64,000 nucleotides of DNA from Alphaproteobacteria bacterium (GCA_029266575.1 JAQSWP010000005.1:343-64342), one strand, 5' to 3'. Positions 1 to 59,490 are shown, counted from the stretch's first letter. Notes: a model not told the origin generated them from the sequence alone. Numbers and translations: made by a program.

Positions 1-825
1 CGACGCCGGCAGCAGCAGGCTGAACAGCACCAGCACGGCCGGCGCCAGCCAGCCGCCCACCAGCGCGATCAGCCTCAATTTAGCGGCATGCTTGCGCGCG
101 ATGCGAAAGCCCATCTCCTTGTTGAGATAGTTCTCCTGCGTATGCGGCGCCTCGAACAGCCGCACCTTGCCCAGATGCCCCAGGCCGGTGGCGCTTTCCG
201 CCGTGCTGAACGCCGGCATCGTGTCGATGTAACGCCAGTACAGGAACTTGGTCAGCGCCGCGACCAGCAATGCCAGGCAAGACGCGAATTGCAGGGTCGT
301 CGCGACGGCAGGCGCGAAGACCAGCGCCAGCGCATTGGCCAGCAGTAGGCCGGTTGCCAATCCAAGGACCAAATAGGCCGGTACGACATAGGAATTGTAC
401 CAGGCGCGGATCGGCTTCAGCGAACGATAGATCATGCCGGTGGCGATCACCGTCACCACCGCGCAGATCGCCGACAGCAGTCCCAGCACGACCAGAACGC
501 CCCGCGCGGCGTCGAAGAAGGTGAACAGCAGCGCCAGCAATCCTGCCGGCAGATAGGTGACCACCGCCAACACGCCTTCGCGGCTGAGCCATGAGCTGCG
601 CCACTGGCTGAAGGCGCGCCACGCCCGTTCGGGCCGTCCCAGATGCAGGAAGGACGACAGCAATCCCAAGGTGAACAGAGCAAAGGCGATGCCGAAGCCA
701 ATGAAGCCGGTCCAAAAGGATGGCGTCAGCGCGCCGAACGCAACCAGCAACGCCAGCACGAACAGCAGCCCGTAGCCCGCGCCCGAAGCGACGGTGAAGA
801 TGATGACGGAAAACGCCGGATGCAT
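1..825 (-). CDS. Membrane anchor subunit (DmsC/NrfD-like) of the adjacent Mo-oxidoreductase; C-terminus lies beyond the window start
   Basis: The frame is open to position 1, so it is absent from the ORF track. My own translation from ATG (823-825, minus strand) reads MHPAFSVIIFTVASGAGYGLLFVLALLVAFGALTP...LHLGRPERAWRAFSQWRSSWLSREGVLAV..., with several long hydrophobic helices. It starts 10 nt after the stop of the FeS subunit. Confidence 0.75.
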   Translation of the reverse strand, partial: MHPAFSVIIFTVASGAGYGLLFVLALLVAFGALTPSFWTGFIGFGIAFALFTLGLLSSFLHLGRPERAWRAFSQWRSSWLSREGVLAVVTYLPAGLLALLFTFFDAARGVLVVLGLLSAICAVVTVIATGMIYRSLKPIRAWYNSYVVPAYLVLGLATGLLLANALALVFAPAVATTLQFASCLALLVAALTKFLYWRYIDTMPAFSTAESATGLGHLGKVRLFEAPHTQENYLNKEMGFRIARKHAAKLRLIALVGGWLAPAVLVLFSLLLPAS

Positions 826-835
826 CGTCTGGGTC

Positions 836-1573
836 CTAGCGCGACAGGATGCGGTCGAGCCAGCCCAGCAAGCCGTCGGCCGATTGCTCGACGACCGGCA
901 GAGCCGAGGCGCCGGTGCAGCCGGAACTGTTCTGGCGCTGGCGCGGCGGCAGATATTTGTTGGTCGGCTTGTAGCCCATCTCCGGCATCAGGTCGAAACC
1001 GCCGCGCTCGGCCACCAGCTTCGACACTTTGCTCTCCGGATCGCCCAGATCGCCGAAATGCCGCGCCGAGGCGGGACAGGTCGAGACGCAGGCCGGCACG
1101 CGATCGATCTCCTCCAGGTTTTCGTTGTAGATGCGGTCGATGCACAGCGTGCACTTCTTCATCGTGCCGCCGTCGTAGTCGTATTCGCGCGCACCATAGG
1201 GGCAGGCCCAGGAGCAGAGCTTGCAGCCGATGCAGGTTTCCGGGTTGATCAGCACGATGCCGTCTTCGGCCCGCTTGTAGCTGGCGCCGGTCGGGCAGAC
1301 GGTGACGCAGGCCGGCTCGGCGCAGTGCAGGCACGATTTGGGGAAATGCACGGTGCGGCTGGCATCGCCCTCGCCCGCCTCGAAGCTGTGGATGCGGTTG
1401 AACCACACGCCAGCGGCATCGGCGCCGTAGGGATCGAGATCGGTCAGCGGGCCCGACGTGCCGCCGGTGTTCCATTCCTTGCAGTTCACCGCGCAGGCAT
1501 GGCAGCCGACGCAGGTGTCGAGATCGATCACCAGTCCCAGTTGCTTCTGGGCAAGCGGCGGCAGGCTGGTCAT
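836..1573 (-). CDS. 4Fe-4S ferredoxin-type electron-transfer subunit (DmsB/PsrB/SoeB-like)
   Basis: 245 aa with four Cys clusters (CVGCHACAVNC, CLHCAEPACVTVC, CIGCKLCSWAC, CTLC...PACVSTC). No signal peptide. The start overlaps the stop of the catalytic subunit (1570-1573). Confidence 0.9.
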   Translation of the reverse strand: MTSLPPLAQKQLGLVIDLDTCVGCHACAVNCKEWNTGGTSGPLTDLDPYGADAAGVWFNRIHSFEAGEGDASRTVHFPKSCLHCAEPACVTVCPTGASYKRAEDGIVLINPETCIGCKLCSWACPYGAREYDYDGGTMKKCTLCIDRIYNENLEEIDRVPACVSTCPASARHFGDLGDPESKVSKLVAERGGFDLMPEMGYKPTNKYLPPRQRQNSSGCTGASALPVVEQSADGLLGWLDRILSR

Positions 1574-4314
1574 TTGACGTCTTCCTTGAGATACGGCTCG
1601 GCCATGGCCTTGCCATAGCGCAGCACTTTCTCGGGCCGTTTCATGTTGGGCGGGAGATGCAAAGTCGGCAATGCCGGCAAAGTCTGGCCGGCCGGCGCCT
1701 GCGTCTTCTCGATGCGCACCCGCAGATCGTACCAGGCGGCCTGGCCGGTGACCGGATCGCTGTTGAGATCGCCGCGATTGCCGTCCTGCTCCGGCAGGGT
1801 TTCGGAAATCAGGTGATTGAGCAGGAAGCCCAGTCGCGCTTCAGGCGCATCGGGATCGAGGTTCCAGGCGCCCGAGCGTTTGCCGATCGCGTTCCACGTC
1901 CACACGGTCCGATCGTTGACGCCTTCCATCAGCTTCACCTGGCAGGTGATCTGCCCGTGATGCGAGGTGACGTTGACCCAGTCCTCGTCGACCAGCCCCA
2001 TCGCCGTCGCCGTGGCGCGGTTCATGTGCAGGCGATTGGCGCCGTGGATCTGGCGCAGCCAGGCATTCTGCGAGCCCCAGGCGTGATACATCGCCGCCGG
2101 CCGCTGCGTGATAGCGTAGAACGGAAACTCGCTCTCCTCGATGCGCTGTTGCTCGAACGGGCGGTACCAGATCGGCAGCGGATCGAAATGATCGCGCACC
2201 CGCGCGCGCAGCGCTTCCGGCGGCTGGATGGCGCCATGGCCTTCGGCGGCGAGGCGGAATTTCTGTAGCGGCTCGACATAGAGCTGCAGAACGATCTGGT
2301 CCGGCTTGGCGATGAAGCCCATCTGCACGGCGTGATCGAGATAGGCCTTGTTGGCGTGCTTGTAGTACTGCGCGTTATGCGGCAGCTCGTATTTCCAGAA
2401 GCAGCCATTCTCTATATAGCGCTCAAGCTGGTTGGGGTTGGGCTCGCCCGTCCCCGCCTTGCTGCCATCCGTGCCACGCCAGCCCGCCAGCATGCCGATG
2501 CCCGGCGCGCGCTGGTGGTTGGCCAGATAATCGGCATAGCCGCCGGGGTGCGCGTTGCCGATCGGACGGTCGAGCAGCGAGATGCAATCCCACCGCTCGA
2601 GATACGTCGTATCGGGCAGGATCAGATCGGCATAGGCCACGGTCTCGGAGAAAAAGGCGTCCGAATAGATGATGTGCGGGATGCGGTAGCTGCCGTCCGC
2701 CTTCTTCGCCGTCAGCATCTCGGCCGTGCCGGCGCTGTTCATCGACGAATTCCACGCCATGTTCGACATGAACATAAACAGCGTGTCGATCTCGTACGGC
2801 TCGCCAGCCCAGGCGTTGCGGATCACCATGTGCATCAGCCCATGGTTGGCCATCGGCGCCTGCCACGAATAGGCGCCGTCGATGCGCCGGCCGCTGCCAT
2901 CCTGCTCGACCAGCAGATCTTCCGGACCGATTGGGAAACCCAGCGGCGGGCGCGGCAATGGCTTGCCCGGCGCGACTTCGCCGATCTTGCCGCCGGGACG
3001 CACCCCGATCGGCGCCGGCCGCGGATAGGGCGATTTGTAACGGAAAGCGCCCGGCGTATCGATGGCGCCCAACAGCATCTGCAGCACATGCAGCGCGCGG
3101 CAGGTCTGGAAACCGTTGCTGTGGGCGGAGATGCCGCGCATGGCATGGATCGCCACCGGCCGGCCGATGATGCTCTCGTGCTGCCGCCCGGCCCAGTCGG
3201 TCCAGGCGATTGGCAATTCGATCTGCTGCTCGAACGCGGCATGCGCCAGTTCCGAAGCGATGCGCCTGATCGTCTCGGCCGAGATGCCGGTAATTTCAGC
3301 CGCCTTCTCCGGCGAATGCGACGGATCGAGATAGCGCTCGACCAGCAGCCGCAGCACCGGCCGTGCCATGCGCCCATCCGCCAGCGTGAATTCGCCAGTC
3401 AGGGCCGGCGCGATGTCGGCGCGCAAGGCGGACGTCACCGACTTGCTCATTTGGTCGAAGCACTGCACCTGCCCGTCGGCATCGCGCGCGAACAGCCCGT
3501 GATCGGCGCTGCCCGGCGCATGGATGGTCAGCCACGGCGCGTTGGTGTAGCGCACCAGGAAATCCAGATCGATTTTCTGCGCCTTCAGCAATTCATGGAT
3601 GATCGCCAGGATCAGCGCGCCGTCGGTGCCGGGCCGCACGCCCAGCCATTCGTCGGCGATGGCGGCATAGGCCGTCTTCACCGGATTGACCGCGACGTAC
3701 TTGGCGCCGCGCTCCTTGAGTTTGGCCAGCCCAGCCTTGATCGGATTGCTGTCGTGATCCTCGGCGACGCCGAACATCATGAAATAGCGCGTCTGGTCCC
3801 AATCGGGCTCGCCGAATTCCCAGAAACTGCCGCCGATCGAGTAGAGCCCGGCCGACGCCATGTTGACCGAACAGAAGCCGCCATGGGCGGCATAGTTGGG
3901 CGTGCCAAATTGCTGCGCCCACCAGCCGGTCAGCGCCTGGCTCTGGTCGCGGCCAGTGAAGAAGGCCAGCTTGCGCGGATCCTCGTTGCGGGTCTTGTCT
4001 AGCCACTGCGTGGCCAGGCCCATCGCCTCGTCCCACTCGATTTCCTTGAATTCGCCCGCGCCGCGCTCGCCTACCCGCAGCAGCGGCTTGCTGAGCCGCG
4101 CCGGCGAATAGTGGTTCATGATGCCGGCCGAGCCCTTGCCGCACAGCACGCCCTTGTTTACCGGATGGGCCCTGTTGCCCTCGATGTAGCGGATCGCCCC
4201 GTCCTTCAGATGCACTTTGATGCCGCAGCGGCAGGCGCACATGTAGCAGGTCGTGGTCTTGACCTCGTCGGAGACCGGCGGCGAGAGATTTTCGATCGGG
4301 GCCTGTAGTTTCAT
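1570..4314 (-). CDS. Molybdopterin (bis-MGD) oxidoreductase catalytic subunit, no Tat signal (SoeA-like candidate)
   Basis: 914 aa from ATG 4314 (MKLQAPIENLSPPVSDEVKTTTCYMCACRCG...VLCGKG, an N-terminal FeS-cluster motif), preceded by AGGAA. The 42 extra upstream codons in the ORF track are not hydrophobic and run into the intergenic gap. Confidence 0.85.
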   Translation of the reverse strand: MKLQAPIENLSPPVSDEVKTTTCYMCACRCGIKVHLKDGAIRYIEGNRAHPVNKGVLCGKGSAGIMNHYSPARLSKPLLRVGERGAGEFKEIEWDEAMGLATQWLDKTRNEDPRKLAFFTGRDQSQALTGWWAQQFGTPNYAAHGGFCSVNMASAGLYSIGGSFWEFGEPDWDQTRYFMMFGVAEDHDSNPIKAGLAKLKERGAKYVAVNPVKTAYAAIADEWLGVRPGTDGALILAIIHELLKAQKIDLDFLVRYTNAPWLTIHAPGSADHGLFARDADGQVQCFDQMSKSVTSALRADIAPALTGEFTLADGRMARPVLRLLVERYLDPSHSPEKAAEITGISAETIRRIASELAHAAFEQQIELPIAWTDWAGRQHESIIGRPVAIHAMRGISAHSNGFQTCRALHVLQMLLGAIDTPGAFRYKSPYPRPAPIGVRPGGKIGEVAPGKPLPRPPLGFPIGPEDLLVEQDGSGRRIDGAYSWQAPMANHGLMHMVIRNAWAGEPYEIDTLFMFMSNMAWNSSMNSAGTAEMLTAKKADGSYRIPHIIYSDAFFSETVAYADLILPDTTYLERWDCISLLDRPIGNAHPGGYADYLANHQRAPGIGMLAGWRGTDGSKAGTGEPNPNQLERYIENGCFWKYELPHNAQYYKHANKAYLDHAVQMGFIAKPDQIVLQLYVEPLQKFRLAAEGHGAIQPPEALRARVRDHFDPLPIWYRPFEQQRIEESEFPFYAITQRPAAMYHAWGSQNAWLRQIHGANRLHMNRATATAMGLVDEDWVNVTSHHGQITCQVKLMEGVNDRTVWTWNAIGKRSGAWNLDPDAPEARLGFLLNHLISETLPEQDGNRGDLNSDPVTGQAAWYDLRVRIEKTQAPAGQTLPALPTLHLPPNMKRPEKVLRYGKAMAEPYLKEDVK

Positions 4315-4351
4315 GATTCCTGTTTCCCCGATCCTAACACCGATTTCCCAC

Positions 4352-5743
4352 TCATGGTCGCCACCAGTCGAGCGCCGCCAGATAGAGGCACAGCACTCCA
4401 AAGGCGGCAACGGTAAATGGCCCGTTCCAGACGCGGCCAATCTTCTCAGGCGTCTCGCCGGTCAAGCCGCCGACCAGCACCACCGGCGTGCCGTAAGGCG
4501 AGGAAGCGATCGACAAGGCCGATCCGCCGAGCAGCGCCGTCGCCAGCAGCACCGAGGGCAGCCCGTCGGCCGGCATGTGATGCAGCGAACTGCCGATCAA
4601 AGTCAGCATCACCAGCGAATTGACGCCAAGCTGCCCGACGGCAGCGATAATGAAGGCGAGCGCGATGGCCAGCCCCAGCCAGGGCAGATCGAAACGCACG
4701 ATCAGGTTCTCGATCGCATCCTCCGGCACCAGTGCGGCCAGCACCGAGCCGATATAGGCGGCGTTGCTGAGGATCAGCGTTTCGGAGCGTGACGACGCGA
4801 ACTCGCCCATCGGCCAGCGCGCGACCCGCCGGCTTACCATCGCCGGCATCAGCCGCGGCCCCAGATGGCGGAACTGCACGCCGATCCACAGCATGGCGAA
4901 GACCGGCATCATCAGCATGATGGAATCGACCGTCGTCAGGTTCAGCGCTTTGCTGGCGCCCACCACCAGCACCATGATGCCCAGTAGCACGGCCAGCATC
5001 GGCAGCACCGACTCCGCAAAGCCATGCCGCGCCACGGGCATCTGCACGGAGACGCCCTGCGGGGTGCGCCACTGCGCTCGGTCCATCACCCATCCCAGCG
5101 CCAGGAACAGCAGCGAGAACGTCGCTCCCGCCGGCGCCAGCGCACCCCAGGTCAGGCCCGGGATCAGCGCCAGGGTCAGCGCAATGAGGATGGATAGCGG
5201 CGACCATCCCACCATGGTGCATTGCCCGCGCATCACCGCCAGCATCATACGCTGCTCGCGGATCTTGTACCGGCGCATGTCGCCGCCGGCGCTGGCCAGG
5301 GTGTTGGAGCGCTTGACCATGGTGCCGAGCAGGTTGACCACGCCGTAGTTCAGGATGATGGCGAAGAGATGCGCTGCTGCGGTCAGCGCCGCATAGCGCC
5401 GGCCCGGCGGCTGGGCGATGACGTAGTTGCCGCAACGCCTGACGGCGGCAGACGTGCGCGCCGCATCGCGCAGCATGTTGAGCGCCAGCAGGAAGGTGGA
5501 GAAATAAGCCGCCAGCAGAATTGCTTTGGCGACGATCGGCCACGGCTCCGGCTTCACCACCAGCACCAGCAGGCTCAGCACCAGCGCCGCGCCGGTGAAA
5601 TAGAAATCGCGCCGGTTGGCGACCAGCATGGCGACGGCGACGAACAGCAGGTAGGCGGCGCCGATCAGTAAGCGAAAGCCGATCCAGTCGCTGAACAGCA
5701 TCATCAAGGTCGTCAGCACGATCACCGTCAGCAGGACAGCCAT
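4352..5743 (-). CDS. Polytopic integral membrane protein of unknown function (paralogue of 5776-7209)
   Basis: Only the last 463 codons of the 921-aa ORF (from MAVLLTVIVLTTLMMLFSDW...) look like a real protein. It is helix-rich and hydrophobic and shares a PPGRRY-containing block with its neighbour. The upstream part of that ORF is an alternative frame of the neighbouring gene. Confidence 0.7.
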   Translation of the reverse strand: MAVLLTVIVLTTLMMLFSDWIGFRLLIGAAYLLFVAVAMLVANRRDFYFTGAALVLSLLVLVVKPEPWPIVAKAILLAAYFSTFLLALNMLRDAARTSAAVRRCGNYVIAQPPGRRYAALTAAAHLFAIILNYGVVNLLGTMVKRSNTLASAGGDMRRYKIREQRMMLAVMRGQCTMVGWSPLSILIALTLALIPGLTWGALAPAGATFSLLFLALGWVMDRAQWRTPQGVSVQMPVARHGFAESVLPMLAVLLGIMVLVVGASKALNLTTVDSIMLMMPVFAMLWIGVQFRHLGPRLMPAMVSRRVARWPMGEFASSRSETLILSNAAYIGSVLAALVPEDAIENLIVRFDLPWLGLAIALAFIIAAVGQLGVNSLVMLTLIGSSLHHMPADGLPSVLLATALLGGSALSIASSPYGTPVVLVGGLTGETPEKIGRVWNGPFTVAAFGVLCLYLAALDWWRP

Positions 5744-5775
5744 CGCACGACGATGAAGCGACAGCCCGCGAGCGG

Positions 5776-7209
5776 TCACAGCGCGCCGCCCTGCATCATG
5801 TGGAAGCCGACGATGACAACGGTCGAGATCACGATGCAGCCGAAGGCATAGAAGCCGTTGTCGCGCCACGCCATGCTCCAGTTCGACTGACCCAGCATGT
5901 TGGCGGCATAAAGCGTCAGGTTGGAGAGCGGCGACAGCACGCCGCCGATGCCCCAGCTCGCCAGCATCAGGAGCGCCATGGTTTGCTGCGACAAGCCGAT
6001 GGCGGCCGGCGGCAAGGTATGGCCGATGATGACGATCATGATCACCGAATGCAGGCCGAGAATCGAGGTGGCGGCGATCACGAACATCAGGAAGGGAATC
6101 CACAGCACGCCGGAGACGCCGATCTTCGACGCCGCCGCCACCAGCAGCTGGCCGTCGACGGCGCTGGACACGCCCTGGCCGAAAATATTGGCGGCGATGA
6201 ACAGCACCGACAGCCCGCGCAAGCCGCCGACATTGTCGACCAGGCTGGAACCGTACTCGCTCCAGCTCACGCGCGGCACGCCCGGCGTTCTGGTCGCCGC
6301 CAGAATCAGGAACCAGCCGAGCGAAAACACCGTCACGACAATGGCGATGGTGGCCGACATCGACAGATGCGCAATGGCGTCGAAAGCTGCGACCGCGCCG
6401 ACCAGGATCAGCGACAGCGCGGCAAGCTTGAGCATCGCCGCCTGCTTGCCCTCGATCACCACCGGCACGCGCGCCTCTTCGACCGTATCGCCGCGCTTGC
6501 CGAAGCGGTCGCAGACGGCGCCGAAGACGATCAGCAACATGCCGAGCACAATGCCCGGGGCGGCGATGTCGACCCAGCGCAAGGTCGGCATCAGCGACAC
6601 CACCACGGCCATGGCGAGGAAGAACGGCGACCAGGTGGAAGCGGCAACGAAACCGCGCGACAGCGCCAGCGCCATCCGCTTGCGCAATTCGCCCGCGGCG
6701 CTTGAGGCAACGAAACTCGCCAGCAGCGCGAAGCCGGCGAAATTGGTGATGGCGGAAAGGAAATGGCTGGCCAGGCTGAGCCAGAGATAGCGCCGGCCGG
6801 GCGGCAGATTGGTGACGATGATGCGCACCACCTGCATCGACGGGCTGCGGATCGCGGGATATTGCAGCAGGGTCACCGAGGCGAACAGCAGGATGAACAT
6901 CAACGTGCCGCGGCCGCCTTGCCACAGCGCGCTTGCCACCTTGTCTCTCATCGCCGCGAGCGCGATGCCGGCTGCGATCAGCGCCAGCCCCATGATCCAT
7001 TGCGAGCGCAGCACCTTGCGCGGCTCGGACACGATATAGAGCAGGAGAAAACCGACGGCAAAGCGATCCAGCCCGATGCCGGGAAACAGTCCCTCGCCCA
7101 CCGCCAGCACGCAGCATGCCAGGCAGGCCAGGGCGCCGACACGCGCGGCCAGCCGGCGGGATTTCGCTGTCCCGATGTCCTCCGTTGCCGTCTGCACCGC
7201 CTGGCTCAC
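5776..7209 (-). CDS. Polytopic integral membrane protein of unknown function (paralogue of 4352-5743)
   Basis: 477 aa with many hydrophobic segments. The GTG start lies 2 nt after the stop of the upstream ligase. Contains the block IVTNLPPGRRYLWLSLASHFLSAITNFAG. Confidence 0.75.
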   Translation of the reverse strand: MSQAVQTATEDIGTAKSRRLAARVGALACLACCVLAVGEGLFPGIGLDRFAVGFLLLYIVSEPRKVLRSQWIMGLALIAAGIALAAMRDKVASALWQGGRGTLMFILLFASVTLLQYPAIRSPSMQVVRIIVTNLPPGRRYLWLSLASHFLSAITNFAGFALLASFVASSAAGELRKRMALALSRGFVAASTWSPFFLAMAVVVSLMPTLRWVDIAAPGIVLGMLLIVFGAVCDRFGKRGDTVEEARVPVVIEGKQAAMLKLAALSLILVGAVAAFDAIAHLSMSATIAIVVTVFSLGWFLILAATRTPGVPRVSWSEYGSSLVDNVGGLRGLSVLFIAANIFGQGVSSAVDGQLLVAAASKIGVSGVLWIPFLMFVIAATSILGLHSVIMIVIIGHTLPPAAIGLSQQTMALLMLASWGIGGVLSPLSNLTLYAANMLGQSNWSMAWRDNGFYAFGCIVISTVVIVGFHMMQGGAL

Positions 7210-7211
7210 GA

Positions 7212-51432: not shown

Positions 51433-51447
51433 AAAGGTTCAACCTTT
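51433..51447. promoter_or_regulatory. Perfect palindrome AAAGGTT-C-AACCTTT (same GGTTCAACC core as 25544-25558)
   Basis: Read directly; 35-50 nt upstream of the TauD-like gene start. Confidence 0.4.
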
Positions 51448-51620: not shown

Positions 51621-51657
51621 ATTGTCACATTTATTGACTCCTTTAGAGGGTGACAAT
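51621..51657. promoter_or_regulatory. Inverted repeat ATTGTCAC-N21-GTGACAAT
   Basis: Perfect 8-bp arms, read directly, upstream of the small ORF. It is a variant of the ATTGTATC motif. Confidence 0.35.
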
Positions 51658-51709
51658 CAATATCCCCAGGCAGATACTGGTCTTCGACATTTCACAGGAG
51701 CGGCGTGTT

Positions 51710-51832
51710 GTGACGACGATGTTCAAACAGGCGTTGGCATATTTTCGTAAAACCTGGACGCAGTTGCGTAATCCCTACCGGCCGGAACGCCATTACATGC
51801 GCGGCTCGCAGCAGGCGCGCTCCGGCAAGTAA
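51710..51832 (+). CDS. Small basic hypothetical protein (about 40 aa)
   Basis: GTG 51710 lies 9 nt after AGGAG; the alternative ATG 51719 gives MFKQALAYFRKTWTQLRNPYRPERHYMRGSQQARSGK. A hairpin terminator follows. Its coding status is unproven. Confidence 0.4.
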   Translation: MTTMFKQALAYFRKTWTQLRNPYRPERHYMRGSQQARSGK

Positions 51833-51867
51833 CGCCGCCCACCTGAATTCCCGGCGCCGGCAGTTTT

Positions 51868-51900
51868 GCGGCGGACCTGTTGGTCCGCCGCTTGTCGTTT
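51868..51900 (+). terminator. Hairpin GCGGCGGACC-TGTT-GGTCCGCCGC followed by TTGTCGTTT
   Basis: A 10-bp stem, read directly, 36 nt after the small-ORF stop. Confidence 0.55.
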
Positions 51901-51907
51901 GCGCGCC

Positions 51908-53461
51908 CTACTTCTTCACCAGTTCGATCGATTCCAGTTTCAGATGATAGGGGCTGCCAACGGCCGGCTTGAGATCCTTCAGCCGCGGCCCAACGGCAAA
52001 GGATTCGCCGCACCAGAACAGCGGCACCGATCGCTTGCGTTCGTCCTCGAGCTTGGCGAAACGCTGCAGGATCTGTTGACGCGACTTCGTGTCGGTGGCG
52101 GCAAGCTGGTCCTGGAAGATCTTGTCGTAGTCGGGATCGGCGATATTGCCGCTCGACCACACCGCCTTGCTGTTGTACCAGCCCGACAGCAGCTCGCCGC
52201 CATCGTCGGGCATCGCCGAGGTGCCGTAGAACACCGCCGGCTGCTTGCCGCCGCGCATCATCTGCATCCACGCCGCCATGTCGTAAGGCTCGCGCGTGAC
52301 CTTGAAGCCGACGGCTTCGAGATAACCCGCGATCGCTTCCAGCACCTGCGGCGCGTTGGGCAGCGAAGCCGATTCGGTATGCAGCGAGTAGGTAAGCTCC
52401 TTGCCCGGCGCCACGCCCGCTTCCTTCAGCAGCGCCTTGGCCTTGGCGGGATCGTAGGGGATCGGCTTGAACCCCGGCAGGTAGCCGAATGTGGCCGGCG
52501 TGAAGATGCCGGGCGACGGTTCGCACACGCCCTTCAACACGGTCTGCGCGATGGTCTTGAGGTCGATGGCATGGCCGATAGCCGTGCGCACCTTGATGTC
52601 CTTGGCCTCGGGGAACTTCGCCACGTTAAAGTACAGCGCGCTGGTGCCGCTGTACTTGGCTGAGAAGATGCGCACGTTCTTGTCGGTGCGGATCTTGTCG
52701 AGCAGCGGCCCGGTCAGGCCGGCGATGATGTCGGCCTCGCCTTTCTGCAGCATGGCGTAGCGGGTGAACGGCTCCTTCACCAGCTGCTGTTTGACGTATT
52801 TGACCTTGGGCGCCTTATTCCAGTACTCGGCATTCGATTCGTACTTGGTCCATTCGCCGGCCTGCAGGCTGTGCAGCTTGAAGGGGCCGGTGCCGACCGG
52901 CTTTTCATGGAAACCCTTGGCGCCGACCTTCTCGTAATAGGCCTTGGGCACGATCGGCTGCAGCCCGTAGCGCGAGGCGGTGAAGAAGCCCAGCCATGGC
53001 GTCTTCAGCACCAGGCGCACCTGGTGCTGGCCGGTGACTTCGATACGCTCGATCGAATCGACGAAGCCCTTGCGGTAGGAATGCGTGTTGCCTTCCTTCA
53101 GCATCGTGTCGTAGGTGAATTTCACGTCCTCGGCGGTGAAGGCATCGCCGTTATGGAACTTCACGTTCTGGCGCAGCTCGAAATCAATCTGCTTGCCGTC
53201 CGGCGACACTTTCCAACTGGTGGCCAGCGCCGGATATTTGCCGTCGGGGCCGTTGTTCAGCAGGCCGTCGAACAGCAGGTCGTTCACCAGGTAGTCGGTG
53301 GTGGCGATGATCTGGGTGGGATCGAAATGCTGGCGCAGTACCGGCGCCACCACCAGCACCTCGCCCTCCGGCGCCGCCGTGGCCGGCAACGGGCTCAGCA
53401 AGGCGGCGCATAGCGCCAGGCCGGCCAACCGGGACAGTGAATTCAGCAGACGCGAGCTCAT
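51908..53461 (-). CDS. Family-5 ABC substrate-binding protein, copy 6
   Basis: 517 aa with a signal peptide (..ALLSPLPATAAPEGE). GGAGGTGGAAAC lies upstream. Confidence 0.9.
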   Translation of the reverse strand: MSSRLLNSLSRLAGLALCAALLSPLPATAAPEGEVLVVAPVLRQHFDPTQIIATTDYLVNDLLFDGLLNNGPDGKYPALATSWKVSPDGKQIDFELRQNVKFHNGDAFTAEDVKFTYDTMLKEGNTHSYRKGFVDSIERIEVTGQHQVRLVLKTPWLGFFTASRYGLQPIVPKAYYEKVGAKGFHEKPVGTGPFKLHSLQAGEWTKYESNAEYWNKAPKVKYVKQQLVKEPFTRYAMLQKGEADIIAGLTGPLLDKIRTDKNVRIFSAKYSGTSALYFNVAKFPEAKDIKVRTAIGHAIDLKTIAQTVLKGVCEPSPGIFTPATFGYLPGFKPIPYDPAKAKALLKEAGVAPGKELTYSLHTESASLPNAPQVLEAIAGYLEAVGFKVTREPYDMAAWMQMMRGGKQPAVFYGTSAMPDDGGELLSGWYNSKAVWSSGNIADPDYDKIFQDQLAATDTKSRQQILQRFAKLEDERKRSVPLFWCGESFAVGPRLKDLKPAVGSPYHLKLESIELVKK

Positions 53462-53567: not shown

Positions 53568-55151
53568 TTACCCTTGCAAAAGCTGGCGCAGATTGGGTTT
53601 CAGCACCTTACCGGTGGCGTTGCGCGGCAAAGCGTCGATGAAGCGGATATCGACCGGGATCTTGTAGGGCGCCAGCTGCTGGCGGCAATGCAGCTTGATC
53701 TCCTCCGCATCGGGCGCCGTGGCATCGGACTTCACCACCAGGAAGGCGCAGACTTTCTCGCCCATGATGGGATCGGGGCCGCCGACCACGGCGACTTCGC
53801 TCAAAGCCGGATGGCTCGACAACACCTGCTCGACCTCGTTGGAATAGACGTTCTCGCCGCCGCGAATGATCATGTCCTTCTTGCGGTCGACCAGGAACAC
53901 GAAGCCGTCCTCGTCCATGTAGCCGAGATCGCCGGTGTGCAGCCAGCCGTGCTTCAGCGTCTCGGCGCTGGCCTTGGCATTGTTGAGATATTCGCGCATG
54001 ACGCTGGGGCTGTTCCCCACCAGCTCGCCGACTTCATGGGGCGGCAGCAGATCGTCGTTGCCATCGACGATCGCCACCTTGGTGGCAGGAATGGCGATGC
54101 CGACCGACCCGATCTTCAGCAGCGCCAGTTCGCCCGGCAGGGTGACCAGCGTGCCGCAGGATTCGGTCTGGCCCATGCCGTGAACGAGCGCGGCGTTGGG
54201 GAACAGCGCCTGCACCTCGCCCAGCTTGTCCATCGGCATGGGCGCGGCGCCGAACTGCACCACCTTGACGTTGGGGAAGGTGACGCCAAGTTCGCGGGCC
54301 CTCCTGGCCATGATCAGCAGGATGGACGGCACACCGAAGAACGAGGTGATGGCTTCGCTGTCCAGCTGGCGCAGCACCTCGTCGACCTTGAAGCTGGTGA
54401 TGATCAAGGTGCCGCCACGATAGAGCACCGGAAAGAACAGCGTGTGCGAAGCGATGTGGAACATCGGCGTCACCGCCATGGCGACCGGCGGGCCGAAGGT
54501 CCAGCCCCAGGCCTGGGAGGCCTGCAGGCAGCCGGCGATCAGGCTGCGATGGGTGTGGACCACGCCCTTGGGCGCCCCGGTGGTGCCGGACGTGTAATAG
54601 ACGGCAGCGGCGCTGTCGGGCGCATCGGCGATCGGCACGCTGTTGCCCTGCGCTGCGCCAGACGGCAGCGTCGCCGGCAGTTTCGGGATCGCCGTTCCCA
54701 CCAGCACGGTGTCAACCAGAGGGGCATAGGGCTGGTCGAAGATCATCAATTGCGCACCGGAATCGCGCAGGATATAGACGATTTCGCGCTCGACCAGCTT
54801 GTTGTTGATCGGCACGGCGATGGCGCCAAGCTGGAGTGCCGCGAAGAACCAGATGGCATAGCGTACCGAGTTGTCCATCAGCATGGCGACCGGCGTTGCC
54901 GGGCCGATGCCAAGCTGCTGCAACGTCGCGGCAGCGCTGTCAACATGGGCGAAAAGCTGGGTGTAGGTCAGGCGCGTCTCGCCGTCGGACAGGGCCGGCT
55001 GACTGGCGACAGCCGCGGTTGCCTGGCGCAGGAACCGCGTGTAGCTCGTGCCGGGCGCGAGCGCGACCAGCGTCGCCTCGATCTCGCGCGCGATTTCGGC
55101 GCGTTTGGCGATCTCGCGATCGCGCAACAGGCGCACCTGTCCGGCTGACAT
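53568..55151 (-). CDS. AMP-forming acyl-CoA ligase (distinct, fatty-acid-CoA-ligase-like)
   Basis: 527 aa from ATG 55151 (the ORF-track TTG is at 55154). Has YTSGTTGAPKGVVHTH and GMGQTE. Confidence 0.9.
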   Translation of the reverse strand: MSAGQVRLLRDREIAKRAEIAREIEATLVALAPGTSYTRFLRQATAAVASQPALSDGETRLTYTQLFAHVDSAAATLQQLGIGPATPVAMLMDNSVRYAIWFFAALQLGAIAVPINNKLVEREIVYILRDSGAQLMIFDQPYAPLVDTVLVGTAIPKLPATLPSGAAQGNSVPIADAPDSAAAVYYTSGTTGAPKGVVHTHRSLIAGCLQASQAWGWTFGPPVAMAVTPMFHIASHTLFFPVLYRGGTLIITSFKVDEVLRQLDSEAITSFFGVPSILLIMARRARELGVTFPNVKVVQFGAAPMPMDKLGEVQALFPNAALVHGMGQTESCGTLVTLPGELALLKIGSVGIAIPATKVAIVDGNDDLLPPHEVGELVGNSPSVMREYLNNAKASAETLKHGWLHTGDLGYMDEDGFVFLVDRKKDMIIRGGENVYSNEVEQVLSSHPALSEVAVVGGPDPIMGEKVCAFLVVKSDATAPDAEEIKLHCRQQLAPYKIPVDIRFIDALPRNATGKVLKPNLRQLLQG

Positions 55152-55188
55152 CAACTCACCTCATAACGAAACAAGGAGCGAAACGACC

Positions 55189-55851
55189 GTGGCCAATCCG
55201 CTGATCTACGCGCCGCAAGGCAATATGGGCCCTGAGCATATCGACGAGCATCGCAACTGGTACATGTCGCGACATGCGCCGACGCTCATGGGCGTCGGAT
55301 TCTACTCGGCGCGCATGTTCGACGGCGTCGGCACGCGCTGGTGCAATATGTACGAGATCCCCGATCTCGATATCCTGAGCACGCCGCAATACAAGGCGAT
55401 CAAGACCAACGACACTTTCCGCGACAAGAACATTTCGCGCTTTTCCAACCTCAACGTCACCATCTACACCCAGGAGCGCATCCTCGACGCCAAAGGCGCC
55501 GGGCTCGATCGCGCGCCCGGGATGTTTGGGCCAGCCATCAGTTTCGTGCGCTTCGATTGGAACGGCAACAGCGGCGAGCTGCAGGGATGGCTGCGCGATT
55601 CCCTTTGGCGCAGCGCCGCCGATGCCGCGCCGGTCCGCAGCGTGCGGCTGCTCGAGCGCACCGGCGAGCATCCCGAGCTCAAGACCAGCTACCCGCATTT
55701 CGCCGCCGCGGTCGAATGGCAGAACAAGGGCATGCCCGACAGCCTCGCCGTCGAGCGGAGCGCTAAGGGCCTCGGTGCGGCGGCCAGCAACGTCTCCACC
55801 GAAAGCTTCAGCAAGCGCTTCGGCCTGGTGCGCGAGGGCGTATTCGACTAG
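55189..55851 (+). CDS. Tandem ferredoxin-like (dimeric alpha/beta-barrel, DUF4286/EthD-like) protein
   Basis: GTG 55189 lies 10 nt after AAGGAG. 220 aa. The N-terminal half parallels the 103-aa protein at 60590-60901 (NWY..H.P......GF.SAR). The second half repeats the same pattern. Confidence 0.65.
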   Translation: MANPLIYAPQGNMGPEHIDEHRNWYMSRHAPTLMGVGFYSARMFDGVGTRWCNMYEIPDLDILSTPQYKAIKTNDTFRDKNISRFSNLNVTIYTQERILDAKGAGLDRAPGMFGPAISFVRFDWNGNSGELQGWLRDSLWRSAADAAPVRSVRLLERTGEHPELKTSYPHFAAAVEWQNKGMPDSLAVERSAKGLGAAASNVSTESFSKRFGLVREGVFD

Positions 55852-55874: not shown

Positions 55875-57080
55875 TCAGCGCTGCAGGGTCGAATCGAATT
55901 CTTCGCCCAGCGCCGCCTGGCCGATGATCTGCGCCGTGCGGTCGTGGCCGGCGTGCTGGATATGGGTCTGCACGTTGGCGATGGCGCGGCCGAGCGGAAA
56001 CTCCTCGAACAGCGCCGTCGAGCCGGCGTGCTGCGTCACCATCTGGCAGACTTCCATTGCCACCTTGGCGGTCGTGTACTTGGCGCCCATCGACAGCAAT
56101 TCCGCTTCCACCACCGAGGCGGTCTTCCACGAGCGGATGGCGTCGTGGAAGGTTGACGCCGCGTTCTGCAGGGCAATCTTCGCCTCGCCCGCGCGCAGCA
56201 GCACGATGGGATCCTTGGCCTTGCCCTTCTTCACGATGTAGTCGCGGAACCAGTCGAACACGCCTTCGGCCACGCCGAGATAATTGGCCGAGAAGCCCAG
56301 ATGGTATTTGCCTTGCCAGCGCTGGCGCGGATAGTCGCCGGGCTTGCCCAACACGTTCTTCTTTGGAATCTCCACGTTCTTCAAGGTGATTAGCGGGCTC
56401 ATCGCCGCGCGCATGCCGGCCGGCCGGTACCAATCGGTGTCGATCTCCATGCCCTCCTGGCCCGGCTCGACCAGCACCATGAGATGGTTATCGGTATAGT
56501 GCTCGACGCCTTCCAGCGAGGTGAAGATGACGCCGCCCACCATCATCGGCGCGTTGGTGGCGTAGTTCTTGATGCCGTCGACGACGTAGCCGCCATCGGG
56601 CTGCGGCCTGGCTTTGGTCGTCATGACGTACATGTTGCGCCGGTTGGGCTCGCTGCCGACGCCGGTCACCAGCAGCGTCTTGTCGAACTGCGGCTTGAGG
56701 AAGCGTTCCTTCTGGTCCTCGGTGCCGATGCTCTCGATCATCCAGTTGGTGTGGTTGTTGAGCTGCAGGCAATGCGCCGTCGAACCGCAGCCGCGCGCAG
56801 TGACCCGGATGGCCTGCAGATAGGTGGCCGGATCGTCGGTCTCCAGATTGGTGCCCTTGCCGCCCAGTTCCTTGGACAGCGATGCCGTCAGCCAGCCGCG
56901 CGCCGTCAGCTCCTTGAGGTTTTCCTCGGGCATCAGGCAATTGGTTTCGTAGTGCTGCGAGCGGGCGCGGAATTTGGTGATAGCGAGCTGCGCCAGCTCC
57001 TTGATCTCGGGCGCGTTCAGCGCCTCAACCGGGTCGATAAAATTTTCCCGCCGCGCCTGCGGCTTGGTTACTGAATTCAC
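55875..57080 (-). CDS. ACAD-fold protein lacking the canonical catalytic Glu (third paralogue)
   Basis: 401 aa. The GTG start follows GGAGGAAA. Has KNYATNAP and the C-terminal VQTHIQHAGHDRTAQIIG. Confidence 0.8.
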   Translation of the reverse strand: MNSVTKPQARRENFIDPVEALNAPEIKELAQLAITKFRARSQHYETNCLMPEENLKELTARGWLTASLSKELGGKGTNLETDDPATYLQAIRVTARGCGSTAHCLQLNNHTNWMIESIGTEDQKERFLKPQFDKTLLVTGVGSEPNRRNMYVMTTKARPQPDGGYVVDGIKNYATNAPMMVGGVIFTSLEGVEHYTDNHLMVLVEPGQEGMEIDTDWYRPAGMRAAMSPLITLKNVEIPKKNVLGKPGDYPRQRWQGKYHLGFSANYLGVAEGVFDWFRDYIVKKGKAKDPIVLLRAGEAKIALQNAASTFHDAIRSWKTASVVEAELLSMGAKYTTAKVAMEVCQMVTQHAGSTALFEEFPLGRAIANVQTHIQHAGHDRTAQIIGQAALGEEFDSTLQR

Positions 57081-57104
57081 GATTGTTTCCTCCGGTTGAT
57101 TTTT

Positions 57105-58484
57105 TCAGGCAGCCTGGCGCGCAATGCCGGCAAAGAACTGGCGCATGTCGGGCACGCCTTCGATGGCGAGGACGCGATCGACCAGGCGCCGGGCGCGGTC
57201 GGCTTCCAGCGGATCGACGCCCAGCGAGGTGCAGGCGTCGAATTTCTCCTCGACCTCCTGCGCCGACAGCGGCGTCTCCGGCGTACCCGGCAGATGCCTG
57301 ATGTGCTCGCGGAACACGCGGCCGTCATTGGTGGCGATCTCGACCGTGACCGGCGACAGCTTGGTGTTGAGGCTGCGGTCGACCACCATCTCGATGCGCT
57401 CGATCATCGGCCTGACGGCGGGATCGAACACGGCCGGCGGCTGGATATCCTCGATTTTCAGGTGCCCGCGCAGCAGCACCGACGCCACCGAATAATAGAG
57501 ATTGAACTGGGCATCGACCTGCGGATCGTCGCCCGGCGCGAAAGGCTGGCCGGTGATCTTCTCGATGAAGGGCGTCACGGTCAGCCTGGCATGCTTGATG
57601 TCGGCAGGCTTCAACCCGTTGCCGTGCACGATGCGGCTGGCGCCTTCGATGGCGCAATGATTGCCGGCGCAGCTGGGATATTTCTTCAGGCTGATCTCGG
57701 CATTGGCGTAGGTCTTGCCCAGCCCGTCGAGCACGGCGTTGACGTCGCCCTTGCCGTAAAGCTTCCACACGCCCGCCTCGCCTTCGAGGAAAGCGGCCGG
57801 GCCGTTGATGCCGGCCTGCGCCAGCAATGCCGCCTGCACGCCGGTCTGGGCGGCGAAGGCGGTCTGCATGCGCTTGGTGAAGCTGCGCTCGGCGATCGGC
57901 TGGCGGGTGCCGGCGGCATTGGAGAAAGCGATGCCCATGGCGTTGCGGATGCCGCGCGCATCCAGCTTCAGCAGCTTGGCGCAAACGGCAGCGGCGGCGA
58001 TGCAGCCATAGACCGACGAGGCGAACCAGCCCGCCGGATTTTCGCGATGCGACAGGCCGAGACGGCAGGCGAGATCGTTGCCCAAGGTCACGGCGCAGAG
58101 AAATTCCTCGCCGGTGACGCTTTCCCGTTCCGCCATCGCCAGTGCCGCCGGCAGGATCACCGCATCGCAATGCATTACCGAGGCTTCGTGCAGGCAGTCG
58201 TAATCCAGCGCCGCGGCATAGGTGCCGTTGACCAGGGCGGCGGCGCCGGCCGGCACGCGTTCGCCATAGGCGAACAGGGTCGCATCGCGCGCGCCGCCTT
58301 CGCGCACCGCCAGATCGTGCAACGGTTTGGAGCCCGGCAGGTCGGTGGCGGCCCAGGCGACGGCGATGGTGTCCAGCATCACCTGCTTGGCGGCGCGGAT
58401 CGCGGTTTCGGGAATGTCCTGCAAACTGGTGCGGGCGATATGGGCGGCCAGAACGTCGCCAACCGTGTCTTTTTCCGAATCCAT
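57105..58484 (-). CDS. MmgE/PrpD-family protein (2-methylcitrate-dehydratase fold)
   Basis: Start at ATG 58484 (MDSEKDTVGDVLAAHIARTSLQDIP) after GGAGGGATC. 459 aa with a typical PrpD-family N-terminal pattern. Confidence 0.8.
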   Translation of the reverse strand: MDSEKDTVGDVLAAHIARTSLQDIPETAIRAAKQVMLDTIAVAWAATDLPGSKPLHDLAVREGGARDATLFAYGERVPAGAAALVNGTYAAALDYDCLHEASVMHCDAVILPAALAMAERESVTGEEFLCAVTLGNDLACRLGLSHRENPAGWFASSVYGCIAAAAVCAKLLKLDARGIRNAMGIAFSNAAGTRQPIAERSFTKRMQTAFAAQTGVQAALLAQAGINGPAAFLEGEAGVWKLYGKGDVNAVLDGLGKTYANAEISLKKYPSCAGNHCAIEGASRIVHGNGLKPADIKHARLTVTPFIEKITGQPFAPGDDPQVDAQFNLYYSVASVLLRGHLKIEDIQPPAVFDPAVRPMIERIEMVVDRSLNTKLSPVTVEIATNDGRVFREHIRHLPGTPETPLSAQEVEEKFDACTSLGVDPLEADRARRLVDRVLAIEGVPDMRQFFAGIARQAA

Positions 58485-58522
58485 GATCCCTCCATGCCGG
58501 ACGCTGCATACGTCTCTTGCGT

Positions 58523-58534
58523 GATATCGATACA
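58523..58534. promoter_or_regulatory. GATATCGATACA copy of the recurrent operator-like motif
   Basis: Read directly in the divergent region between the PrpD-like gene and the second TauD-like gene. Confidence 0.4.
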
Positions 58535-58620
58535 TTACCGTAGCAATTTTCCGCCGCTTGGGAAGAATTTGTGTAACATTCAGATCAAATTGCACCTATG
58601 CGTTTTGGAGAGGAATGGCC

Positions 58621-59490
58621 ATGAGCCTGCGCGCAGTCTCGAATGAAATTGAAAGCCCCATCACGGTGCGGAAGCTGGCTCTGGCGCTGGGTGGGGAGAT
58701 CAGCGGCGTCGATCTCGGCGCGCCGATGAGCGATGCGACGTTCGAGGCGATCCATGCGGCGCTGATGGAATACCAGGTGATCTTTTTTCGCGACCAGCAG
58801 ATGACCATGGAACAGCAGCTGGCGCTGGCCACCCGGTTCGGCCCGCCGACCTACTCCAAGAAGCTGCCGAAATACGACGGCCACGATTATACGTCGCTGA
58901 TCCAGACCGATGGCAGCACCATCAATGTCGGCGGCAAATGGCACAGCGACAACACCGATTTCACCACGCCGCCGATGGGCGCCGTGCTTTATGCCGAGCA
59001 GGTGCCGAGCTTCGGCGGCGATACGCTGTTCGCCAGCATGTATGCCGCCTATGACGCGCTGTCGGCCGGCATGCGCGCCTATCTCGACGGGCTCTATGCG
59101 CTGCACGACAATTCCGACGTGGTGCGCCGTTTCGCCGGCACCGCCTATCTCAACAAGGAAGCGGCCGAAGTGCCGCCACCGGCCAAGCATCCGGTGGTGC
59201 GGGTGCATCCGGTGACCGGGCGCAAGGCGCTGTACGTCAATTCCAGCTACACCCGCTCGATCGTCGGCGTGCCCGATACCGAGAGCAAGCACATCCTGGC
59301 GATGCTGTTGGAGCATGTGCAGTTGCCGGAATTCCAGGTCCGTTTCCAGTGGCAGCCCGGCAGCGTCACGATCTGGGACAACCGCTGCACCCAGCATTAC
59401 GCGCCCAACGACTATCGCGAGCCGCGCCGCATGCGCCGTGTGCAGATCGATGGCGACGTGCCGCGCGGGCCGCAACCGGCTCAGGCCTGA
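58621..59490 (+). CDS. TauD/TfdA-family Fe(II)/2-oxoglutarate dioxygenase (second TauD-like paralogue)
   Basis: ATG 58621 lies 7 nt after GGAGAGG. Has WHSDNTD, AKHPVVRVHPVTGRKALYVN and PEFQVRFQWQPGSVTIWDNRCTQHYA. Confidence 0.85.
   Translation: MSLRAVSNEIESPITVRKLALALGGEISGVDLGAPMSDATFEAIHAALMEYQVIFFRDQQMTMEQQLALATRFGPPTYSKKLPKYDGHDYTSLIQTDGSTINVGGKWHSDNTDFTTPPMGAVLYAEQVPSFGGDTLFASMYAAYDALSAGMRAYLDGLYALHDNSDVVRRFAGTAYLNKEAAEVPPPAKHPVVRVHPVTGRKALYVNSSYTRSIVGVPDTESKHILAMLLEHVQLPEFQVRFQWQPGSVTIWDNRCTQHYAPNDYREPRRMRRVQIDGDVPRGPQPAQA

Follow-up and report, generated by a model that had tools for sequence, protein, structure and literature searches.

The 64,000-nucleotide stretch of Alphaproteobacteria bacterium DNA analysed here (GCA_029266575.1, JAQSWP010000005.1:343-64342; hereafter the window) carries in positions 1-59490 a set of genes that we read, with moderate confidence, as a co-regulated neighbourhood for the coenzyme A (CoA)-dependent catabolism of anionic acids, most likely sulfur-bearing ones, with sulfite being oxidized in the cytoplasm. 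The evidence for sulfur is uneven, and its strongest part is found at 1-15789. There, the genes of a predicted sulfite dehydrogenase (SoeABC) stand in one conserved operon with CoA ligase genes, an acyl-CoA dehydrogenase (ACAD)-fold gene and a four-domain rhodanese gene. Both the sulfite dehydrogenase, whose co-transcription with these genes is conserved, and the recurring rhodanese point to sulfur-bearing substrates and to a release of sulfite inside the cell.

Sulfonates and related organosulfur acids account for a large share of soil and marine organic sulfur. To our knowledge, only a handful of chemistries cleave the C-S bond, and the sole CoA-dependent one is that of the Acd desulfinase.

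Genes were called by third-position GC content, and about 50 open reading frames (ORFs) were scanned against Pfam. Every component listed in the initial annotation, which had proposed the use of sulfonated or sulfinated carboxylic acids with cytoplasmic sulfite detoxification, was recovered in its place, and the seven AMP-binding (CoA ligase) genes were counted again. The absence of xsc, pta, ssuDE and tauE was upheld as well: none of the called genes matches the Pfam families of the TPP-enzyme (Xsc), PTA, luciferase-like monooxygenase, flavin reductase or TauE. The proposal itself stands in part. It is supported by the conserved soeABC/ligase/ACAD/rhodanese operon, but the Tau labels hold for the superfamilies only, and no ACAD has the defining features of the known desulfinase.

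The acadA-soeC operon

The operon comprises 11 genes, all on the minus strand, transcribed in the order acadA, rhodanese, alpha/beta hydrolase, lig3, lig2, lig1, memY, memX, soeA, soeB and soeC:

1-825, minus strand: soeC-like membrane anchor of the DmsC/NrfD type, its C-terminus cut by the window end (Pfam DmsC, 63 bits)
836-1573, minus strand: soeB-like iron-sulfur subunit with a 4Fe-4S dicluster (Pfam Fer4_11 and related)
1570-4314, minus strand: soeA-like catalytic subunit of the molybdenum bis-pyranopterin guanine dinucleotide (Mo-bisPGD) type (Pfam Molybdopterin, Molybdop_Fe4S4, Molydop_binding)
4352-5743, minus strand: memX, polytopic membrane protein whose family carries no annotation, putative transporter of organic anions or sulfate
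5776-7209, minus strand: memY, a memX paralogue (27% identity; PPGRRY motif in both)
7212-8873, 8870-10501 and 10498-12120, minus strand: lig1, lig2 and lig3, tandem overlapping CoA ligases (Pfam AMP-binding, 233-252 bits)
12117-12992, minus strand: alpha/beta hydrolase (Pfam Abhydrolase_1/6)
12982-14574, minus strand: four-domain cytoplasmic rhodanese (four Pfam rhodanese domains)
14629-15789, minus strand: acadA, which opens the operon (274.7 bits on NF042439, whose cut-off is 600; best PDB match 5af7)

The genes are tightly packed. No gap exceeds 54 bp, and at five junctions the genes overlap, by 11 bp between rhodanese and hydrolase and by 4 bp at the other four. The three ligases are mutually 47-50% identical. 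None of them reaches a cut-off in NCBIfam, and for their specificity neither a close solved structure nor a curated family was matched.

The three subunits follow the A-B-C order expected of SoeABC (Mo-bisPGD subunit, 4Fe-4S subunit, NrfD/DmsC anchor), the soeB start overlapping the soeA stop by 4 bp. The full-length SoeC has 316 aa in the sibling contigs L149/L150. The SoeA start codon at 4314 was confirmed and gives the N-terminus MKLQAPIENLS (MKLQAPIENLSPPVSDEVKTTTCYMCACRCG). This N-terminal region contains the FeS Cys cluster and no twin-arginine (Tat) signal (no RRxFLK), as expected of a subunit facing the cytoplasm. SoeA is 64-68% identical to many proteins named "sulfite dehydrogenase (quinone) subunit SoeA" by the Joint Genome Institute (JGI). 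In NCBIfam, no SoeA match was obtained; the best family is PhsA, with 206 bits against a cut-off of 694, and DmsA is also far below its cut-off. By annotation transfer, the best reading of 1-4314 is a cytoplasmic sulfite:quinone dehydrogenase of the SoeABC type, whose activity is predicted. The SoeABC-like enzyme of the initial annotation is thus found again in the Pfam domains, in the gene order and in the missing Tat signal. An eighth AMP-binding (CoA ligase) gene, convergent to soeC, is located just past the left end of the window (L149 10330-11070; L150 7624-8988).

Relatives keep this enzyme together with the CoA ligase, ACAD and rhodanese genes. Locus L007 has an identical gene order, with protein identities of 85-97% (SoeA about 85%). 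A more distant relative, locus L147 (GCA_964458605.1; SoeA 75% identical), has the order ACAD, rhodanese, hydrolase, three ligases, acdl2-like gene, three mem genes and SoeABC, and it keeps the divergent carboxyltransferase beside the operon. Two insertions separate lig1 from the mem genes in this locus: a base-less ACAD-fold gene, 60% identical to acdl2 of the window (see below), and a third mem paralogue. The more distant SoeABC loci, for example that of Nisaea acidiphila, stand alone; hence, soeABC is joined to ligase and ACAD genes specifically in this group, and this is not its default position. The alpha/beta hydrolase is possibly a thioesterase, and its orthologue in L147 additionally matches PF00975 Thioesterase.

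The rhodanese proved genuine, with a single catalytic domain: only domain 2 carries the catalytic Cys (Cys189, NCAGRTRS). A rhodanese 39% identical over its full length, with the same single catalytic Cys, adjoins an acdl2-like gene on a plasmid of Variovorax sp. SRS16.

The membrane proteins memX and memY have no match in Pfam, NCBIfam or the PDB sequences, and for memX the Pfam and NCBIfam results stay blank even at E<5. The AlphaFold model of memX (pLDDT 91.5) was compared with Foldseek, which returned TRAP-DctM, VcINDY, ArsB and NaS1 at TM scores of 0.5-0.62. From this model, the fold is predicted to be that of the elevator-type ion-transporter (IT) superfamily. The model thus resembles the carriers of this superfamily (DASS/VcINDY/NaS1, TRAP DctM SiaQM/IseQM, ArsB, AbgT), but memX lacks sequence similarity to Pfam, NCBIfam and PDB entries and has its own motif, Q-P-P-G-R-R-Y, invariant in the family. 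Relatives of memX occur at 409 loci in a collection of species-representative genomes, mostly of Alphaproteobacteria. When the neighbouring ORFs were clustered, none stood out as a dominant partner; genes for ACADs, ligases and CoA-transferase-like proteins are found at a minority of loci, and about one quarter of the mem loci are near genes of acyl-CoA metabolism. SoeABC is close to the family in only 3 of 80 loci. With so few SoeABC neighbours and no dominant partner, a role as dedicated sulfate/sulfite exporters was rejected, and a putative carboxylate importer is somewhat more likely than a sulfate exporter.

The ACAD-fold proteins and their relatives

Besides acadA (14629-15789), three ACAD-fold genes are present in the window, named acdl1 (21828-23009), acdl2 (27665-28849) and acdl3 (55875-57080). 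Their surroundings are as follows:

20270-25515, minus strand: operon of sdr2, lig4, acdl1, gntR2 and sdr1 (sdr, short-chain dehydrogenase/reductase, SDR)
26024-32681, minus strand: operon of nmt1b, nmt1a, lig5, acdl2, the ATPase of an ATP-binding cassette (ABC) importer and its permease
32849-34231, plus strand: MocR-type regulator, divergent from the NMT1 operon (Pfam GntR and Aminotran_1_2)
55875-58595, minus strand: MmgE/PrpD-family gene (57105-58595), then acdl3
58615-59490, plus strand: tauD2, TauD-family dioxygenase, divergent from the prpD-like gene

The catalytic residues were mapped onto those of the medium-chain acyl-CoA dehydrogenase (MCAD) and of the 3-sulfinopropionyl-CoA (3SP-CoA) desulfinase, PDB 5af7. 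At the position of the canonical base, Glu376, MCAD has Glu, the desulfinase Gly, acadA Gly and acdl1-3 Ala. The second position, Thr255 of MCAD, is that of the base in isovaleryl-CoA dehydrogenase (IVD) and long-chain acyl-CoA dehydrogenase (LCAD); it is occupied by Gln (Gln246) in 5af7, Glu in acadA, Trp in acdl2 and Tyr in acdl1 and acdl3. The three Glu-less ACAD-fold proteins of the initial annotation are therefore real: acdl1-3 have no base at either the MCAD-type or the IVD/LCAD-type position. In acadA, the canonical Glu is absent, but a Glu is found at the IVD/LCAD-type position (YNGER), like the arrangement in MCAD T255E/E376G. Since this Glu is usable for catalysis, acadA is most simply read as a real dehydrogenase with an LCAD/IVD-type base, and is probably an ordinary one.

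Overall, acadA is nearest to the 3SP-CoA desulfinase, which provides both its top NCBIfam family (NF042439) and its top PDB match (5af7). As defining residues of the desulfinase AcdDPN7 we take Gln246, Gly366 and the essential Arg84, reportedly described by Schurmann et al. (2015, Acta Cryst D). The equivalent of Arg84 is a Ser in acadA, and an Arg follows 4 residues further on. An assignment of acadA as a 3SP-CoA desulfinase was rejected on the Glu at the 246-equivalent and the Ser at Arg84. Like the desulfinase, acdl1-3 have the base at neither position (Ala; Trp or Tyr). Their Arg84-equivalent is an invariant His96, accompanied by an invariant Gln99 and an invariant His369. By residue mapping and NF042439 scores, no ACAD of the window has the defining features of the known 3SP-CoA desulfinase.

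The proteins acdl1 and acdl3 are 62% identical. A sequence profile of acdl1-3 scores highest with true ACADs (187 bits), followed by DszC (138) and the desulfinase (130). The AlphaFold model of acdl2 (pLDDT 95) is superimposed on acyl-CoA dehydrogenases with TM scores of 0.88-0.92 and on the desulfinase with 0.83; DszC is not among its top 50 structural matches. A literature search on the PDB entries 5GJ7 and 5Z8T returned nothing.

The acdl family is rare, with 178 clusters at E<=1e-20. Six of its loci in other genomes are organized as follows:

L141: SDR, NMT1, NMT1, three AMP-binding genes, acdl2, ABC ATPase, permease and NMO, then a 535-aa rhodanese and MocR
L143 (metagenome-assembled genome, MAG, of Ramlibacter): MocR divergent from NMT1, two AMP-binding genes, TRAP, acdl2 and ABC
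Variovorax sp. SRS16, plasmid 4: SDR, TctC, ACAD, AMP-binding, four-domain rhodanese, acdl2-like gene and SDR, then, farther on, a PrpD-like gene with a pair of flavin reductases
L145: NMT1, acdl2, ATPase and permease, with PrpD-like and SDR genes nearby and no ligase
L144: acdl2-like gene adjoining Opp genes and three luciferase-like monooxygenases
R. rhizogenes K84: "taurine" NMT1 binding protein, acdl1-like gene, luciferase-like monooxygenase and PrpD-like gene

The family thus recurs with NMT1 binding proteins, ligases, rhodanese, MocR and MmgE/PrpD, and a minority of its contexts resemble two-component sulfur-scavenging clusters. In L141 and L143, the MocR gene has the same relative position as in the window. 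The module of MocR, NMT1, ligase and base-less ACAD is therefore not peculiar to the window and is found elsewhere with the same four-domain rhodanese. A gene of the MmgE/PrpD family adjoins base-less ACAD genes in four unrelated genomes (window 57105-58595; L087 14554-15903; L088 20465-21853; L145 588-1961). The copy of the window is 35-36% identical to those of L087 and L088 and far below the cut-offs for 2-methylcitrate dehydratase.

Probable common control, proposed pathway and alternative readings

The initial annotation had noticed operator-like motifs common to several units, and this is confirmed by the counts. The palindrome TTGTATCGATACAA occurs with at most 3 mismatches at six sites (16154, 25683, 25693, 53471, 53527 and 58522), against 0.5 sites expected from shuffles of the whole window and 0.07 from shuffles of the intergenic regions only. 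Two further sites have 4 mismatches (32767 and 55161), and all sites are located in promoter-containing intergenic regions. A palindrome-like match, with 3 mismatches, is also present between the carboxyltransferase and ACAD genes of L147. The shared palindrome suggests that the units form a common regulon, and the GntR/FCD proteins are its probable, still putative, binders.

The units are linked by paralogues as well. Five ligases (lig1, 2, 3, 5 and 6), 45-57% identical, are distributed over three units, namely the soe and NMT1 operons and the Opp unit. The two TauD-like proteins share 58% identity, the two GntR/FCD regulators 53%, and the seven family-5 binding proteins are mutually 49-78% identical. 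With these families spread over several units and with the common palindrome, the view of the region as one functional neighbourhood holds.

The MocR regulator has the domain architecture of TauR (GntR helix-turn-helix and aminotransferase-fold domain). Among curated families, it comes closest to EhuR, with 436 bits where the cut-off is 480, and is much farther from GabR or PdxR, which hints at an amino compound as effector. The TauR box CTGGACYTAA of R. capsulatus is absent from the window. The direct repeat TGTTCCAAT, with its copies ~72 bp apart at 32733-32820 in the divergent nmt1b/mocR intergenic region, provides possible candidate MocR boxes. A second motif, ATTGSAWCAATTTT (14-mer ATTG[GC]A[TA]CAATTTT), has 3 sites, at 16134, 32732 and 51497, in three promoter regions; for two of them, a copy of the main palindrome is 20-35 bp away. 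This motif was set aside because its pattern was derived from these same sites and is not independently significant.

A pathway can be proposed from these parts. Substrates would be taken up by the NMT1-type ABC importer, by the Opp-type ABC system with its seven paralogous binding proteins and possibly by memX/memY, and the paralogous AMP-forming ligases would convert them to CoA thioesters. The putative dehydrogenase acadA, with its IVD-type base, would act on these thioesters, and acdl1-3, with their invariant His/Gln/His and no base, could cleave the C-S bond in a non-redox reaction of the desulfinase type. Sulfite released in the cytoplasm would be oxidized to sulfate by the membrane-bound SoeABC, the electrons passing to quinone. 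The single-Cys rhodanese would handle sulfane sulfur or thiosulfate, and the alpha/beta hydrolase may recycle CoA. Expression would be controlled by the GntR/FCD regulators at the palindrome and by the MocR regulator.

A further step is offered only tentatively. In it, acdl1-3 would be a second, independent class of enzymes cleaving the C-S bond of CoA thioesters (desulfinases or desulfonases), with substrates other than 3-sulfinopropionate, which work with AMP-forming ligases and the four-domain rhodanese and feed sulfite to the co-transcribed SoeABC. The proteins memX and memY would form a new branch of elevator-type anion transporters serving this pathway, importing sulfo- or sulfino-carboxylates or exporting sulfate.

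The logic of the pathway has precedents, and the enzymes of the window fall outside the characterized families. For Variovorax, a 3SP-CoA desulfinase followed by SoeABC has been proposed (PMC6370202), and in V. paradoxus B4 a rhodanese and a molybdopterin oxidoreductase were proposed for sulfite detoxification (PMC5373536). In Advenella mimigardefordensis DPN7 and Variovorax paradoxus TBEA6, the 3-sulfinopropionate pathway (Acd, PDB 5AF7) resembles the present one in the activation with CoA, in an ACAD-fold enzyme without dehydrogenase chemistry and in the proposed use of SoeABC for cytoplasmic sulfite (PMC5373536, PMC6370202). At the residue level, the likeness to Acd consists of the Gly of acadA at the canonical base position and of the absence of both bases in acdl1-3. 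The differences are considerable, however. Seven AMP-forming ligases are present here, compared to SucCD or a CoA transferase there; the window has no thiol dioxygenase (Mdo/Msdo), the transporters differ, and soeABC is here physically fused to the pathway operon. The regulons of TauR/MocR include the SoeABC-like BisC/DmsC/HybA and OppABCDF (PMC5320631). As in the alphaproteobacterial TauR taurine regulons, to which TauABC, Tpa or TauXY, Xsc and Pta also belong, a MocR gene is divergent from an NMT1-type ABC operon, with a SoeABC-type enzyme and Opp transporters nearby (PMC5320631). Unlike these regulons, the window contains no xsc, pta, tpa or tauXY and no TauR box, its MocR is nearest to EhuR, the importer parts are below the Tau cut-offs, and CoA ligases and ACAD-folds replace the sulfoacetaldehyde route.

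Several results weigh against the reading as sulfur catabolism. With two exceptions, SoeA (by annotation transfer) and the rhodanese domains, all sulfur-specific assignments fall short of a curated threshold. The soeA gene of the window lacks 45 conserved residues (GPGDAIRQPVVKPDRDVRPFQDVLIDLGVRLGLPGLTRPDGSAQF) through a 135-bp in-frame deletion, with its junction at ~2548-2565 flanked by an 18-nt microhomology. These residues are present in the sibling contigs L149/L150, otherwise 99.9% identical, and in all homologues; the catalytic subunit is thus not intact and full-length in the window. The deletion may be either an assembly collapse or a deletion allele possibly inactivating SoeA. Among the ACAD-folds, acadA owns a usable catalytic Glu, the Arg84 of the known desulfinase is replaced in all four proteins, and acdl1-3 score 53-95 bits on NF042439 against the cut-off of 600. 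Some acdl homologues are ligase-free and adjoin luciferase-like monooxygenases, the pattern of two-component sulfur-scavenging oxygenases. The family of the four-domain rhodanese is mostly found in unrelated contexts: it occurs at 51 metagenome loci and, besides the near-identical copies of the window, none has the other genes of the window. Its contexts are so varied that the rhodanese was rejected as a pathway marker, not being diagnostic alone. The rarity of SoeABC near the mem genes belongs here, too.

The Tau-like parts point in the same direction. In the NMT1 unit (26024-32681), a pair of NMT1 binding proteins, one permease and one ATPase have the architecture of an importer (Pfam NMT1/NMT1_2, BPD_transp_1, ABC_tran), and a CoA ligase gene and an ACAD-fold gene are embedded among them. 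Its membership in the NitT/TauT superfamily stands, but the more specific name of TauABC-like importer does not: the scores are 60-68 bits for SsuA_fam (cut-off 163.5), 115 for SsuC (347), 107 for TauC (342) and 184 for TauB (357), and in the PDB the NMT1 binding protein matches neither TauA nor SsuA. Matches of the ABC subunits to "Sao", a selenoprotein-associated transporter, are below cut-off and were discarded as uninformative. The two TauD-like dioxygenases are present as annotated, are 44-45% identical to E. coli TauD and keep the Fe(II) triad His99/Asp101/His255, the 2-oxoglutarate-binding Arg266 and the anion-binding Arg270. The residues that we take to be the taurine contacts of TauD (structures 1GQW/1OS7) are however replaced in both (His70 by Ser, Tyr73 by Leu, Asn95 by Gly), and the scores on NF007104 are 264-265 bits against a cut-off of 313. 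From these residues, tauD1 and tauD2 are predicted 2-oxoglutarate dioxygenases for some anion, and the name TauD-like holds for the superfamily only.

Two other explanations have to be compared with sulfur-acid catabolism. The genes could be an assimilatory, sulfur-scavenging set of the sulfate-starvation type, in which TauD-likes, DszC/SfnB-like ACAD-folds and the NMT1 and Opp importers obtain sulfur for growth by stripping it from sulfonates, sulfate esters or sulfones, the ligases being unrelated neighbours. The proteins acdl1 and acdl3 have DszC and SfnB as best-scoring families, and the systems of DszC, SfnB/MsuC and ssuEADCB/tauABCD share with the window a Glu-less ACAD-fold, an enzyme gene inside an NMT1-type ABC operon and homologues adjoining luciferase-like monooxygenases. 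Such surroundings are seen in R. rhizogenes K84, where the acdl1 homologue lies between the "taurine" binding protein and the monooxygenase, and in L144, where three luciferase-like genes and an Opp system adjoin the acdl2-like gene; the ligase-free order of L145 resembles the ssuADCB layout, and flavin reductases are near homologues in Variovorax and Natrinema. However, acdl1-3 reach only 76-107 bits against cut-offs of 431-850 for these families, and luciferase-like monooxygenases, flavin reductases and LysR regulators of the CysB/Cbl type are missing from the window, its regulators being GntR/FCD and MocR. The ligase genes overlap or abut acdl1 and acdl2, ligases accompany acdl2 again in L141, L143 and L147, and true acyl-CoA dehydrogenases match the acdl2 model better than DszC does. 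Moreover, assimilation needs no dedicated sulfite oxidase, yet this enzyme is co-operonic with an acdl2-type gene in L147. Sulfur scavenging is thus considered quite unlikely.

The substrates could also be free of sulfur, examples being carboxylic acids of an alicyclic, branched or aromatic kind, or compounds resembling peptides. In that case, promiscuous superfamilies would have produced a spurious sulfur theme, SoeABC and the rhodanese having another role or serving general sulfite housekeeping. Every substrate-specific sulfur assignment is indeed below cut-off, and the ligases, SDRs, carboxyltransferase, FAD_binding_2 protein and MmgE/PrpD protein belong to generic acyl-CoA metabolism. The flavoprotein and the SDRs match enzymes of the cyclohexanecarboxylate pathway weakly, and the curated family nearest to the MocR protein is EhuR, which regulates ectoine use. 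Unrelated contexts prevail for both the rhodanese and the mem family, and the soeA of the window carries the deletion. Against this, soeABC is still fused to the ligase/ACAD operon at ~75% identity in L147, despite the insertion of acdl2 and of the third mem gene, and the solitary state of distant SoeABC copies makes this fusion specific. The same four-domain rhodanese is found beside acdl2-type modules on a betaproteobacterial plasmid and on an unrelated metagenome scaffold. A sulfur-free pathway is hence regarded as unlikely.

The catabolism of sulfur-bearing acids would, if true, make the operon coupling ligases and ACAD-folds to a sulfite dehydrogenase a genomic marker for such pathways. 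It would furthermore provide candidate enzymes for new desulfination or desulfonation reactions and a candidate function for an unannotated transporter family of ~400 species-level genomes. If the link to sulfur is false, the window is an example of how superfamily labels (TauD, TauABC, DszC-like) suggest a theme unsupported at residue level. Three parts are of most value: the conserved operon with its fused soeABC, the ACAD family without a catalytic base and the transporter family that lacks annotation.

Other features of the window

The remaining units between acadA and position 59490 are the following:

16172-20202, plus strand: operon divergent from acadA, with acyl-CoA carboxyltransferase (16172-17818), FAD_binding_2 flavoprotein (17857-19428) and gntR1, a GntR/FCD regulator (19429-20202)
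25736-25951, plus strand: biotinyl-carrier-domain ORF of 71 aa (Pfam Biotin_lipoyl, 59.8 bits)
34253-45773: Opp/Dpp-type ABC unit (minus strand: sdr3, oppC, oppB and three family-5 binding proteins; plus strand: oppD, oppF and lig6)
45786-53461, minus strand: more family-5 binding proteins, a split pseudogene (45786-47308) and tauD1 (50574-51398)
53568-55154, minus strand: lig7, divergent CoA ligase with 26-29% identity to the other ligases

In total, the window contains three SDR genes, two GntR/FCD regulators and one MocR regulator, and the Opp-type system has a split copy besides its seven intact family-5 binding proteins. The split copy is broken into the ORFs 46412-47308 (N-terminal part) and 45786-46340 (C-terminal part), and is probably a frameshifted pseudogene among the intact paralogues. 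The biotinyl-carrier ORF, with an ESMKME motif, stands alone between two operons. A carboxyltransferase is present (16172-17818), but there is no biotin carboxylase in the window. A putative gene of 267 codons (55048-55851, plus strand) has a coding-like third-position GC of 0.84 and zero family matches, and it overlaps the 5' end of lig7 in antisense.

The memX protein is 100% identical to one encoded in an "Alphaproteobacteria bacterium" MAG (locus tag K0S54_189). Proteins identical to those of the window were found only in a few soil-type metagenome contigs, and the nearest named relatives are MAGs of Reyranellaceae, Hyphomicrobiales and Rhodospirillales. The term island, used in the initial annotation, is not borne out in the sense of a mobile element. 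The GC content of ~64% is even across the whole window in a GC scan, and no tRNA, no Rfam element and no integrase or transposase was found, the last two among the called genes scanned. A plasmid origin was likewise rejected, since a megablast of 20.7 kb against PLSDB gave trivial fragments only. To the right of the neighbourhood, the block 59481-64000 carries a LigD-like ATP-dependent DNA ligase, a DUF4286 ORF (60590-60901), EamA, a xylose-isomerase-like TIM barrel and DUF993, and looks unrelated to it.

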